DNA from: Escherichia phage 1-6af
Direction: 5' to 3' (one strand)
Sequence record: OR983333.1
Length of the DNA: 64,000 nucleotides
Both the position numbers and the translations under genes were made by a program. Shown here piece after piece: positions 14,616 to 17,224 of the stretch. Each line of letters begins with the position of its first letter. The stretch's first letter is position 1. The notes below the pieces were generated by a model. It was not told where the DNA came from. It saw only the letters and a list, made by a program, of their open reading frames with translations, and did not search any database.

Positions 14616-15477
14616 TAATCCAATCTAGATCTGAGACTGCTGATTCGATGGTTGAGTCATTAAACAGTAGATATGTTTTTCTCTGTTCGCCTTCAATATA
14701 TGAACGAGAGTCTCCATCAAAAGAGCAACCATCTCTAAGAACTTGGACAACTTGGACATGGAAATTCTTTTCTAGTTCTCGTACCTCTGCATCAAAACCT
14801 CCGTCAGTAAACACGACAATATCATCCTGACCTAGCCCTTCTTGTTTGATACTTTTTACAGCAAGATTCCCCATATGATTGTTGCCAAACATAGGTTTTA
14901 AGAAGTCTTCACTTGTAGAAATCATCAAATCTCTTACAGACTTCCCTCCCCATTCTGGTCTATGTTTTTCTTTCCATTCACGATCTTCATAGCGTGCTAG
15001 AAAATTTTCTAGAGGTATTCCTAGTGCAGCAGCAGCTACTCTGTACATTGGCTCCTTGAAGGATTTGGTTGAATATCCGTGGTGGTATGAATGGGCATTG
15101 ACCCAAGCATTGGCTATCGTATCTTTACCACAACCCGGAGGCCCATTAAGAATTACTACTAAAGGCTTATAGTGGGAATCTCCCACCATATTGGTCAGTG
15201 CTGGATTGCCTTGAGATTCCATTTCTAATTGCTCCGTGTGGTCATGTGAGTAATCTACTGGAGAAGTTTTGTTACCAGTAACTTTAGGTAAAATCGCTCT
15301 AGTTGTTTCTACGTATCTACCGCCATCAACATTGATTTGAAACTCTACAAGTTCATTCTGTAATTCATACCCTGATAAGTTGGATAGCTCCTCCAACTCA
15401 TCTCTGACGAAATTTAAATGTTTGATTTTAATTGCAAGAGCTTTCTTTAAAGCTTTTACCTCTTCATTCATTCCCAC
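14578..15477 (-). CDS. P-loop deoxynucleoside monophosphate kinase-like protein
   Basis: GPPGCGKDT P-loop and FTDGGFDAE / VQVLRDG motifs resembling T4 gp1; about 100-aa N-terminal coiled-coil extension. Confidence 0.5.
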   Translation of the reverse strand: MGMNEEVKALKKALAIKIKHLNFVRDELEELSNLSGYELQNELVEFQINVDGGRYVETTRAILPKVTGNKTSPVDYSHDHTEQLEMESQGNPALTNMVGDSHYKPLVVILNGPPGCGKDTIANAWVNAHSYHHGYSTKSFKEPMYRVAAAALGIPLENFLARYEDREWKEKHRPEWGGKSVRDLMISTSEDFLKPMFGNNHMGNLAVKSIKQEGLGQDDIVVFTDGGFDAEVRELEKNFHVQVVQVLRDGCSFDGDSRSYIEGEQRKTYLLFNDSTIESAVSDLDWIIAQAQDDIYGRS

Positions 15478-15860
15478 TCTCCAGTGATTTCCATATCGGC
15501 TTTATCTCCTTTCTTAGTAAGGAGGATTGCTGGTTTATTCTTACTCTTCATATACTCAAACATATGCATAGAGCCTCTTGACTCTCCATCCCAGAAGACT
15601 ATCACTGCATCTGCATACTCACCCATGTCTACGTTTCGAAGTATCCCAGCCTTTTTGCCGAGAGTGTTCCACGAAGGAATGAAACGTTTGATAGGTATGT
15701 CATTATGTTTAGCAACAGCCTCTCCGTGAAGATCTGGACCTCTTGCACCACCTGACACAACTTCTGAAATCAGCTTGGGGATTTCCTCTGGAAGCAAAGC
15801 CCACATCTGAGTAAAAGAATGCCAGTCTATCGACCGGCTTCCTGCGATTATTACTTTCAT
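15468..15860 (-). CDS. SLOG-superfamily (DUF2493-like) nucleotide-binding protein
   Basis: IIAGSRS ... VSGGARGPD ... VIVFWDG motif pattern. Confidence 0.45.
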
Positions 15861-16504
15861 GTAATCAATCCTTGAAACTCTTCTTTATCGAAGTGTTTTT
15901 CTACCACATATTCATACAGATCTTTTAACTCCGCATATCTACGGTAGAATGTTCCGTGTGACATTCCAATGGTTTTCTGGATGTGGTCATGCGGTATTCC
16001 CAAGAAGATCATAGAGAACATATTGGCTAACTTCTGAGTATCCATCGTATCACTTAAATCTTGGAAGAAATAGAAGATACGAGACTCCATGAATGGGTCT
16101 CCAACACAATCTTGCTTATCCATAGCAATCTCTAAAGGACTATCAACCATATCAGGAGTACGGAACATATCAGCCTCTGGAATTGAGTAGATACGACGGT
16201 CCCCTACAGTCTGCCTATTTGAACGTATAGACCAGATAATATTCTTGACTCGATAAGTCATATGCTCTTGGTCTTTCTCATCCTCTAGGACTCTCTCATC
16301 CTGCTTAGCGAAGACAAATCTCCAAGCATTCAAGAGCACTTCCTGTGCCACATCTTCTGCTTCATGGTAATCCCTGATATCGTACATGAAGAACTTGTGA
16401 ACCACTTTCCAGTTCACTTTATAAAACTCTTCATAGTTTGAGATATATTTGATTGGGATTCCATGAATTCGATATCTTGTAGGTGTTGTTTTCTTCGCCA
16501 TCAT
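15857..16504 (-). CDS. phage-encoded ECF-like sigma factor
   Basis: Region-2-like [15 protein letters not shown] and region-4 HTH-like segment near the C-terminus. Confidence 0.6.
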
Positions 16505-16523
16505 CTTTCCTTGTTGTTGGCTA

Positions 16524-16964
16524 TTATAGACAGATATAGACAGGTATGTCCATCTGATTTAGATACTTAAACATTATAGGTCTTACCTGAGACTGATAAT
16601 CTAACCCTCCATTACCACAGCCTAAAGGCGTTATCGCCAAAGATGTTATACCTTTCTCTTTGTAGGTAAATAGTAACTTTTGTAAACCTTGTTCTATCCA
16701 CTCTACCTCAGAACCATTCCTCCAATGTTTCTTGGTTGGAAAACACAGCCCTAATCTCCCATCATTTAACCTCTGTAGGAGAAGCTGTCCAATCTGGAAT
16801 CCAGAGTTGCAAGCAACTTTATACCTCTCAAAAGCTTCAGGGTATCTTCTTTTATACTCCTTAGCCACTCCTGCACCCATTACACCAACTAGGTTTACTG
16901 TACAGGTTACTGTTTGGACGTCCACCGTGAATACATTGGCTTTTCCTTCAAAAACAATAGCCAT
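16524..16964 (-). CDS. macro-domain (ADP-ribose-binding/processing) protein
   Basis: [12 protein letters not shown] and [13 protein letters not shown] motifs; ATG 16964 overlaps upstream stop (ORF track extends to 17045). Confidence 0.5.
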
Positions 16965-17224
16965 TATTTTATTCCACGTTCTTTCAGAGCTTCTAACAAT
17001 CCATTGTGATTGGCAGCACATTCTGTGTACTGGTCCTGATACCACTCCAATGTAGTGGCTAGTGCTTTTCCTTGAGCACTCTCTAAAAGAGGTAGGTCAA
17101 CCCTACATTCAGCTTTTAGGTTTGTTGGTAAGGGCATTGATTGCCTGCTGTTGTCGCTCATTGAACAAGCTGACATACTCATCACTAGCGCAGACATTAT
17201 AAAAAACTGGTTTAGTTTTCTCAT
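16964..17224 (-). CDS. o-spanin (Rz1-like lipoprotein) candidate
   Basis: Signal/lipobox-like MSALVMSMSAC, Pro-containing periplasmic segment; overlaps the 3' part of the i-spanin ORF in another frame. Confidence 0.4.
   Translation of the reverse strand: MRKLNQFFIMSALVMSMSACSMSDNSRQSMPLPTNLKAECRVDLPLLESAQGKALATTLEWYQDQYTECAANHNGLLEALKERGIK

Follow-up and report, generated by a model that had tools for sequence, protein, structure and literature searches.

The three consecutive minus-strand ORFs that fill positions 15468-17045 of the window (the whole stretch of DNA analysed here, 64 kb in length) raise the question of what a macro domain, an ECF-like sigma factor and a SLOG protein do side by side in a phage genome; a preliminary description, made from the letters of the DNA, had put them forward as candidates for host takeover and anti-defence. 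Megablast identified the window as that of a phiEco32-like Kuravirus, which overturned a T5-like reading suggested by matches to a dNMP kinase, a FEN exonuclease and an HNH protein. The DNA of the three-gene region is 97-99.9% identical to that of dozens of sequenced Kuraviruses, and the encoded proteins are 98.5% (SLOG, gp35), 99.5% (sigma, gp36) and 97.3% (macro, gp37) identical to their phiEco32 counterparts; given this conservation of both DNA and protein, the trio is not a chance arrangement. Pfam, PHROG, PDB and fold searches bore out all three proposed domain assignments. Most of the locus is already annotated or published, and the sigma factor is known biology. The explanation we favour, with a probability of about 0.65 for the three genes taken as a whole, is that the gp36 homologue is the phage sigma factor, the gp37 homologue an AdfM-type enzyme and the gp35 homologue a binder of a nucleotide-type ligand, all three being middle genes that would be co-transcribed and translationally coupled and would function independently of each other.

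The macro gene lies at 16524..16964 on the minus strand and encodes a protein of 146 aa. The interval proposed at the outset does contain the three genes, but its upper limit of 17045 is only where the longest possible ORF opens, at a GTG chosen mechanically. The macro gene itself starts at 16964: the ATG there overlaps the o-spanin stop codon (TAATG), a 441-nt (146-aa) gene is annotated here in the records of phiEco32 and Bas90, and the alignment to phiEco32 gp37 begins at residue 28 of the long ORF. The 146-aa product aligns over its full length in relatives by tblastn. It matches Pfam Macro (PF01661) at E 1.2e-10 with 41.8 bits against a cut-off of 22, and its best PDB matches are DarG macrodomains (5m3i, 5m31 and 7omu, E 7e-28 to 2e-25). 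The PADLOC DarG model (E 3.8e-45) is matched in its macro part only, and NCBIfam antitoxin_DarG (NF048014) at positions 6-144 of 338, with 144 bits against a cut-off of 250 (E 5.2e-42).

Several features place the protein with the DarG2 antitoxins. It is 39-42% identical to the macrodomains of Taq, Mtb and EPEC DarG (5m31, 5m3e, 5m3i), and its residues N24, K78, H80, W81 and G115/G117/N118/G119 correspond to N22, K80, H82, W83 and G117/G119/N120/G121 of Taq DarG, so that the catalytic Lys and Asn and the G-x-G-N-G loop that binds ADPr are all in place. The macrodomain of Taq DarG is by itself enough for antitoxin function, the mutations that harm it most are K80A and N22A, and W83 has been proposed to stack on the modified thymine (PMC5179494); the equivalents of K80 and N22 are invariant across the gp37 family. 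Two ADPr-contact positions are unlike Taq DarG (K29 is replaced by Ala and Q34 by Glu), and the same Ala is found in AdfM of phage PhiKZ. Unlike the DarG2 antitoxins, gp37 has no C-terminal DarT-binding domain and gives no full-length match at equivalog level, and no darT gene was seen beside it, its neighbours being the genes for the o-spanin and the sigma factor; for these reasons we regard it as an orphan enzyme and not as the antitoxin of a toxin-antitoxin pair. As judged from these matches, gp37 is a stand-alone macrodomain, specifically of the DarG type.

The same description fits AdfM (PhiKZ gp104, Cell Rep 2026; T4 Tk.4, HIDEN-SEQ preprint), a stand-alone DarG2-type phage macrodomain. 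Over its full length gp37 is 41% identical to PhiKZ gp104 (E 4e-35), with which it shares the catalytic Asn (N24, equivalent to gp104 N23), Lys and Trp, the Gly-rich loop and the K29-to-Ala change relative to Taq DarG, whereas gp104 has in addition a 9-residue insertion and a C-terminal tail. PhiKZ AdfM strips DarT2-made ADP-ribose from DNA and is required for growth on DarTG2 hosts (PMC13309987), and the T4 macrodomain Tk.4/AdfM protects against E. coli DarTG2 (bioRxiv 10.1101/2025.11.20.689424). Unlike AdfM, gp37 is encoded by a 77-kb podophage without a phage nucleus. Most likely, gp37 is an orphan-antitoxin counter-defence gene whose product is a candidate AdfM-like DNA ADP-ribosylglycohydrolase. 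Made along with the replication genes, it would hydrolyse ADP-ribose off thymidines modified by host DarT2 on single-stranded phage DNA, and we infer that it would thereby restore phage replication and packaging in E. coli carrying DarTG2. The proposal that the macro domain counters ADP-ribosylation thus gains a DarG-type fold and an AdfM homologue in its favour, while for this phage it remains homology-based. A literature search for Kuraviruses together with DarTG found nothing.

The sigma factor gene lies at 15857..16504 on the minus strand (215 aa), the likely start probably being the second ATG at 16501, which would give 214 aa. The family profiles named in the preliminary description were passed above their cut-offs by the macro protein and, for PF10686, by the SLOG protein. 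For the sigma factor the outcome was split: PHROG 1740 ("RNA polymerase sigma factor") matches at E 3.5e-45, but Sigma70_r2 reaches 18.3 bits against a cut-off of 24, and TIGR02937 likewise stays below its cut-off (22.5 against 42.9 bits), so that the region 2 and region 4 profiles of the ECF-like (group 4) sigma-70 family are not matched above their cut-offs and by sequence the protein is only a distant homologue of that family. It matches chain F of the cryo-EM RNAP-promoter complex 9m7y at E 3e-145. That chain is phiEco32 gp36 (Savalia/Pavlova/Severinov; Xu et al. NAR 2025), and through the identity of the two proteins the sigma2- and sigma4-like domains described in the RNAP-gp36-gp79-promoter structure (PMC12276001), which bind RNAP and read the -10 and -35 regions, can be assigned to the window phage. 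All 20 of the 20 RNAP- or DNA-contact residues listed in that work are kept, as are the AATGTA motif and the gp79 partner. The differences from phiEco32 gp36, one Ser-to-Cys change in the inter-domain linker and a possible additional N-terminal Met, are functionally nothing notable. That the sigma factor redirects host RNAP to phage promoters, as had been proposed, is established by experiment for the 99.5%-identical phiEco32 protein (PMC12276001; 9m7y_F), and here it offers nothing new.

The promoters and the partner protein expected of a gp36 regulon are found in the same genome. The published consensus for gp36 promoters is tAATGTATAtA / AATGTA (PMC4281155, PMC12276001), and exact matches to the motif TAATGTATA lie at 18747..18755 on the minus strand, some 60 nt ahead of the gp40 homologue, and at 8140..8148 on the plus strand, upstream of the gp26 homologue. 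The first of these, a gp36-dependent middle-promoter motif, heads an operon that takes in the HNH and spanin genes as well as macro, sigma and SLOG. Mapped through its offset to the phiEco32 coordinates, the second, a late-promoter motif, would lie some 50 nt ahead of the gp26 homologue, at the expected site of late promoter P26, which is among the promoters used in vitro (PMC12276001). A gp79 homologue is encoded at 36462..36707 on the minus strand (98.8% identity over 82 aa by tblastn); gp79 displaces sigma-70 and stabilises gp36 on RNAP (PMC12276001). A putative sigma-70-type promoter (TGGACA-18 nt-TATAAT, 11 of 12 consensus matches) is found at 16523..16552 on the minus strand, within the 3'-terminal part of the macro gene, whose stop codon its -10 hexamer overlaps; it agrees with the description of the sigma gene of phage SU10, which has its own promoter with an 18-nt spacer (PMC4281155), and it would drive the sigma gene. 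In the resulting scheme the first gp36 would be made from the sigma-70 promoter within the macro gene end and later gp36 from the gp36-dependent promoter upstream of gp40; aided by gp79, gp36 would displace sigma-70 on E. coli RNAP and read middle and late promoters through the AATGTA -10-like element plus a -35-region contact. Rfam found a single tRNA (49436-49514) and no other match over the entire window, and the folding of a possible plus-strand transcript of the intergenic region 18690-19100 is unremarkable (z = -1.9).

The SLOG protein, encoded at 15468..15860 on the minus strand, has 130 aa. The gene overlaps both neighbours, the sigma stop codon at its start (ATGA) and the start of the dNMP kinase gene at its stop. 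It belongs to the YAcAr (DUF2493) branch of the SLOG superfamily (Burroughs et al. 2015; Iyer et al. 2022), which also associates with Macro in phages, as indicated by its score on PF10686 (E 1.1e-6, 28.8 bits against a cut-off of 28.2) and a Rossmann-like fold; PHROG 289 matches at E 2.5e-25. A PDB search with gp35 alone gave spurious weak matches to hepatitis E ORF2 and YlqF and was replaced by profile and fold searches. The structure model is confident and has a YpsA/DprA-like SLOG-superfamily fold, with YpsA, DprA and ShosA as structural neighbours. The gp35 profile aligns to the DprA motifs GSR, SGGAxGxD and RN, its Gly-rich strand-1 loop reading AGSR, and a polar pocket is strictly invariant across the family. 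In contrast to DprA, ShosA and ThsA, gp35 consists of the bare domain and carries no SAM, winged-helix or effector domains; of DprA it has the core Rossmann domain alone, with 11.6 bits on TIGR00732 against a cut-off of 191. At E <= 1 no PADLOC defence model, those for ShosA and ThsA included, matched the gp35 sequence, which leaves similarity of fold only, and the idea that gp35 is ShosA, ThsA or another defence-derived protein was dropped. Domains of the gp35 type were matched in 645 of 50,697 phage records. For DUF2493, a literature search turned up functional context only in ICP1, as a helicase fusion.

Across phages the SLOG domain keeps company with DarG-type macrodomains more often than expected. 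The two are found fused, with either one first, and as separate neighbouring genes in viral contigs that are unrelated and in Erwinia phage RAY. The pairing is enriched (P about 4e-3 to 7e-3 against background rates of 1.3-1.5%), though it is seen in only 5 of 79 independent macro loci and 3 of 80 SLOG loci. Iyer et al. 2022 noted the association independently (PMC9503650). Otherwise SLOG genes sit in replication and nucleotide-metabolism modules.

Whether adjacency in the window phage reflects a joint function can be judged from its relatives. An IMG/VR scan with the sigma protein returned 4 loci only, a number too small for statistics, and counts were taken instead from tblastn on GenBank phages. 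Among 100 sigma-carrying relatives, macro is present in ~43 and SLOG in ~68, and every combination occurs: Bas92, EK010 and Bas88 have the sigma factor without either neighbour, and NJ01 and KBNP1711 have SLOG without macro, so that gp35 varies independently of macro in Kuraviruses. The trio is not an obligate module. Because relatives keep the sigma factor without one or both neighbours, adjacency is no evidence of a joint function with it, and the same pattern largely refutes a single regulatory cassette in which macro and SLOG sense or edit ADP-ribose marks that control the sigma factor or RNAP. Close packing and translational coupling of the genes, and the position of the sigma gene's sigma-70 promoter inside the macro gene, are what such a cassette might show; but in vitro gp36 needs only RNAP and gp79 (PMC12276001), and in the part of the Bas90 genome inspected (records 28062-77534), where many ORFs are hypothetical, there is no annotated ADP-ribosyltransferase whose marks the macro protein might reverse. 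We consider a shared cassette highly improbable. The variability of the gp37 slot is as expected for an accessory counter-defence gene. A different substrate for gp37, namely soluble or protein-linked species (ADP-ribose-1''-phosphate, O-acetyl-ADP-ribose or NAD-derived immune signals) in place of DNA, would suit the names "Appr-1-p processing enzyme family" or "phosphatase" that phage records give to this protein (PHROG 335), the proposal of Iyer et al. 2022 that soluble ADP-ribose derivatives may be the main targets of phage macrodomains (PMC9503650), and the fact that gp37's closest relatives, cellular and viral, are for the most part stand-alone macrodomains with no known substrate. There is also a weak similarity to the TARG1/OARD1 structure (E 0.008), but the match to DarG macrodomains is better by ~20 orders of magnitude, models specific to DarG reach E 1e-42 to 1e-45, and no MacroD or Poa1p-type structure was matched in the PDB search. 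The proposed thymine stacker W83 of Taq DarG is moreover kept as W81, and two phage homologues of the gp37 clade act against DarT2 by experiment (PMC13309987; bioRxiv 10.1101/2025.11.20.689424). We therefore judge a gp37 that spares DNA to be quite unlikely and retain the AdfM-like reading.

For gp35 the choice is less clear. The preliminary description had it that the SLOG protein may bind nucleotide-derived signals; the modelled fold is compatible with this, and a DprA-like role on ssDNA is equally live. Most likely, gp35 has a ligand of nucleotide type, which could be a moiety derived from ADP-ribose or one of the nucleotides of ssDNA, and we infer that it probably acts in phage DNA or nucleotide metabolism, in some lineages in physical association with a DarG-type macrodomain. 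It could instead be a miniature DprA-like ssDNA-binding protein and recombination mediator, its pairing with macro reflecting shared action on ssDNA or mere co-location in a module. DprA and the DprA-like antitoxin ShosA, which counters its toxin through DNA binding and the promotion of recombination (PMC11961720), are among its top structural matches, the DprA motifs are carried by its profile, some homologues also match Pfam DprA, and fusions of the domain to SF1B helicases are known. In 80 viral loci the genes found most often near SLOG are those for FEN exonuclease, RNR, ThyX and DNA polymerase A, and Erwinia phage RAY has a UvsX-like recombinase gene followed by an unknown gene, the macro gene and one for a DprA-like protein; but since most middle genes of small lytic phages sit in replication modules, such context is weak evidence. 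The slightly acidic pI of 6.4, which disfavours a DprA-like ssDNA binder, the missing SAM and C-terminal domains and the low TIGR00732 score speak against this reading, a serious possibility that we nevertheless do not expect to hold. A role in soaking up or hydrolysing NAD-derived immune signals (cADPR isomers or ADPr conjugates of TIR/Thoeris type), in effect that of a decoy copy of the sensor domain used by such systems, would make use of the invariant polar pocket, has been predicted for YpsA-like viral SLOGs (PMC9503650), and would fit a Proteus-phage-like contig in which SLOG lies between a PnuC NMN transporter and NrdD, beside a gene of deoxyribosyltransferase fold. We think it unlikely, however: gp35 is less similar to the SLOG of ThsA than to YpsA, DprA or ShosA, its sequence matches no PADLOC model, its gene belongs to the middle operon with replication genes and not to the early anti-defence genes, and literature searches found no experimental precedent for a SLOG sponge. 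More speculatively, the YAcAr SLOG may be a second counter-defence component against DNA-damaging toxins that acts with the DarG-type macro on ADP-ribosylated ssDNA, perhaps by recognising modified nucleotides or ssDNA gaps, by broadening the substrate range or by a ShosA-like recombinational bypass. This would explain the repeated fusion and adjacency in unrelated phages, and we regard it as doubtful.

If gp37 acts as proposed, it would extend the AdfM class of orphan DarG2-like counter-defence proteins from jumbo phages and T4 to the phiEco32-like coliphages that are therapeutic candidates. Phages with the macro gene (phiEco32, SU10, Bas90 and the window phage) and those without it (NJ01, KBNP1711, Bas92 and the Suseptimaviruses) are predicted to differ in host range on E. 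coli carrying DarTG2. Among uncharacterised phage domains SLOG ranks with the commoner ones, and the fusion and adjacency data point to a concrete candidate partner, the DarG-type macrodomain, and to a concrete candidate class of substrate; should the joint counter-defence role prove true, a very widespread phage "DUF" would gain a function.

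The phage belongs to the phiEco32-like podophages (genus Kuravirus, Gordonclarkvirinae); over the 5.5 kb that surround the genes of interest it shares 99.9% identity with Escherichia phage FH3 and ~97% with phiEco32 and SU10. The interval 15468–17045, described preliminarily as adjacent macro-domain, ECF-like sigma factor and SLOG genes, is filled by three consecutive minus-strand ORFs whose products are homologues of phiEco32 gp35 (SLOG, 15468–15860; 98.5% identity, record label 'putative GTP-binding protein'), gp36 (sigma, 15857–16504; 99.5%, 'RNA polymerase ECF sigma factor') and gp37 (macro, 16524–16964; 97.3%, 'Appr-1-p processing enzyme family'). 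Profile searches bore out all three calls: Macro PF01661 matched over threshold (E 1.2e-10), YAcAr/SLOG PF10686 passed its 28.2-bit cut-off with 28.8 bits, and the sigma factor, sub-threshold for Sigma70_r2, nevertheless gave a strong PHROG 'sigma factor' match. Only the upper end of the interval needs revision, as the longest possible ORF begins with a GTG at 17045, whereas the macro gene itself begins with the ATG at 16964. This ATG overlaps the stop codon of the o-spanin gene, and the resulting 146-aa product is the one that the phiEco32 and Bas90 records carry. The o-spanin (16964–17224, minus strand, within 16964–17483) appears to begin with MRKLNQFF and to carry a lipobox (MSAC), its gene lying out of frame inside the i-spanin gene; the phiEco32 record has just a 57-aa C-terminal piece as gp38, and that annotation therefore looks truncated.

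The gp37 macro domain is specifically of the DarG type. Among solved structures it came closest, at E 7e-28 to 2e-25, to the DarG macrodomains of M. tuberculosis and T. aquaticus and to that of another DarG-like protein, with TARG1/OARD1 next at no better than E 0.008, and it matched the DarG models of both PADLOC (E 3.8e-45) and NCBIfam (antitoxin_DarG, E 5.2e-42). Both matches are confined to the N-terminal macro region of the models, and the equivalog cut-off was therefore not reached; gp37 thus has the enzyme domain of DarG2 without its DarT-binding domain, and no darT gene was found near it. In Taq DarG the macrodomain by itself is enough as an antitoxin, with K80A and N22A the most damaging mutations (PMC5179494); the corresponding K78 and N24 of gp37 are invariant across 51 relatives, and T77, H80, W81 and the loop G115-x-G117-N118-G119 also agree with Taq DarG. 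PhiKZ gp104, named AdfM (anti-DarT factor macro), shares 41% identity with gp37 (E 4e-35); this PhiKZ protein strips DarT2-made ADP-ribose from DNA, rescues DarT2 toxicity and is needed for growth on DarTG2-carrying hosts (PMC13309987). The T4 macrodomain Tk.4, independently named AdfM, is conditionally essential on E. coli DarTG2 (bioRxiv 10.1101/2025.11.20.689424). Among GenBank phages outside Kuravirus, the closest gp37 homologues are chimallivirus AdfM proteins (40–46% identity). The DarG-type matches together with the AdfM homology led us to assign gp37 as a putative AdfM-type orphan antitoxin.

The biology of the sigma factor is already known. phiEco32 gp36 co-purifies with RNAP and drives transcription from middle and late promoters, in which AATGTA is centred at -11.5 (PMC12276001), and it has been seen on E. 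coli RNAP together with promoter DNA and gp79, which displaces sigma-70 and stabilises gp36 (PMC12276001; PDB 9m7y chain F). At all 20 positions that this study gives as contacts (clamp helices, -10 region, flap-tip helix, -35 region) the window protein has the same residue as gp36, and a gp79 homologue lies at 36462–36707 (98.8% identity). Takeover of RNAP by gp36 was demonstrated in the phiEco32 work. At HMM thresholds the protein is not recognisable as an ECF sigma; the basis of its ECF membership is structure and biochemistry.

The gp36 promoter consensus TAATGTATA, preceded by a hairpin and T-run, occurs without mismatch at 18755–18747 (minus) upstream of the gp40 homologue (17941–18687), which is followed, all on the minus strand, by genes for an HNH homing endonuclease, the spanin pair, macro, sigma, SLOG, a dNMP kinase and a FEN-type exonuclease; sigma overlaps SLOG, and SLOG the kinase gene, in the ATGA manner. 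The final 30 nt of macro contain a sigma-70 promoter close to consensus (TGGACA-18-TATAAT, 16552–16523), directly upstream of the sigma start, in agreement with the sigma-70 promoter described for the SU10 sigma gene (PMC4281155). We infer that sigma and its downstream genes could be transcribed early by host RNAP, and that macro, since it lies upstream of this promoter, would depend on the gp40 promoter. The gp36 motif also occurs at 8140, ~50 nt upstream of the gp26 homologue (coordinates mapped from the phiEco32 record), which would be the expected site of the late promoter P26 used in PMC12276001. Two further copies of AATGTATATA, at 18819–18828 (plus) and 30426 (minus), have the upstream element TTGGTAGTAGATAT in common at identical spacing. 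The former, on the plus strand of a 400-bp intergenic region, is directed away from gp40 and antisense to the middle genes, and could be a divergent gp36-type promoter; its putative transcript had no Rfam match and folded unremarkably (z = -1.9). Within the presumed gp40-to-gp33 operon, a terminator-like GC-rich hairpin and T-run at 17478–17495 (minus), between the HNH and i-spanin genes, may attenuate read-through into the spanin and macro genes. The HNH/NUMOD4 gene (17518–17931, minus), which separates the gp40 homologue from that of gp39 (i-spanin), has the look of a mobile insertion: it is present in FH3, SU10 and CHD5UKE1, which cover 100% of the query against only 92% for most other relatives, and the phiEco32 and Bas90 annotations have no gene between gp40 and gp39.

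Macro and SLOG form no module with sigma. By tblastn of phage records, sigma was found in 100, macro at at least 80% identity in 43 and SLOG at at least 80% in 68, and every combination was met among the relatives inspected: phiEco32, Bas90 and one IMG/VR contig have the full trio, NJ01 and KBNP1711 have sigma and SLOG without macro, and Bas92, EK010 and Bas88 have sigma alone. These presence/absence data largely exclude the alternative that the three genes are a combined regulatory cassette. The slot between o-spanin and sigma (16964–16524 in the window; loci L007, L009, L010, L011, L012) is hypervariable in this phage group: it is empty or occupied by macro, by a 69-aa ORF, by a 112-aa 'NrdA-like' ORF or by a pair of small ORFs, and the genes found there in place of macro may likewise have accessory or anti-defence roles. 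Elsewhere in Bas90, an early cluster (L174:16179-24349) of gamma-glutamyl cyclotransferase, ATP-grasp/glutaminyl transferase, large glutamine amidotransferase, amidoligase and COOH-NH2 ligase genes resembles a system for modifying peptides or metabolites and should have a counterpart within the window. The window's single tRNA gene (49436–49514, minus; 29.7 bits against an Rfam threshold of 29) is probably the tRNA-Arg annotated in Bas90.

gp35 is a genuine SLOG protein. AlphaFold, supplied with 60 homologues, modelled it with high confidence (pLDDT 93.8), and the residues invariant in its family (G6, R8, G36, A38, G40, D42, G45, W63, A70, G71, R74, N75, S93, G95) fall, in a profile alignment, on the DprA motifs GSR, SGGAxGxD and RN. 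DprA itself was rejected as an identity (TIGR00732 11.6 against 191, single domain, pI 6.4), no PADLOC defence-system model matched, and the literature yielded no experimental work on DUF2493 beyond mention of a fusion to an ICP1 helicase.

Outside the Kuravirus group, macro and SLOG are linked to each other. A gp35-family SLOG gene lies within 6 kb of a DarG-type macro in 6 of 80 viral contigs (five independent lineages), Erwinia phage RAY and a 432-aa Macro-SLOG fusion being among these; macro was found in 3 of 80 SLOG-carrying contigs, including a 266-aa SLOG-Macro fusion and one overlapping gene pair. Fusions in both orders are a stronger argument than the enrichment (5/79 against a background of 1.3–1.5%, P ~4e-3 to 7e-3). 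The same association was published as a prediction, with NAD/ADPr-related roles proposed (Iyer, Burroughs and Aravind 2022, PMC9503650). The commonest neighbours otherwise, over 80 viral loci, are FEN exonuclease, ribonucleotide reductase, ThyX, DNA polymerase A, metallophosphoesterases and MazG. In a distant relative, a Proteus-phage-like IMG/VR contig of ~90.7 kb (L095:150-7261), the order is ECF-like sigma, FEN exonuclease, DNA ligase, nucleoside-deoxyribosyltransferase-fold protein, PnuC, SLOG and NrdD, and the SLOG gene, flanked by the PnuC NMN transporter and NrdD, has a NAD/nucleoside-flavoured context. In the chimallivirus Erwinia phage RAY, the row gp150–gp153 (L003:2098-5355) opens with a UvsX-like recombinase and an unknown gene; next come the AdfM-type macro gp152 and gp153, a DprA-like protein of 293 aa that includes a YAcAr region. 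This row hints at a link of de-ADP-ribosylation with recombination.

For gp35 we envisage that the conserved SLOG pocket would bind a nucleotide-type ligand and that the protein would take part in the metabolism of DNA or nucleotides, jointly with macro in some phages, although any specific version of this is tentative and rather doubtful. It competes with a DprA-like role on ssDNA or in recombination and with a role as a signal sponge.

By homology gp37 would be a new member of the AdfM kind, removing DarT2-type ADP-ribosyl-thymidine from phage ssDNA in replication (probability about 0.7); the rival is that it acts on soluble ADPr instead. Removal from ssDNA would yield a simple and testable host-range prediction, comparing macro-positive with macro-negative Kuraviruses.
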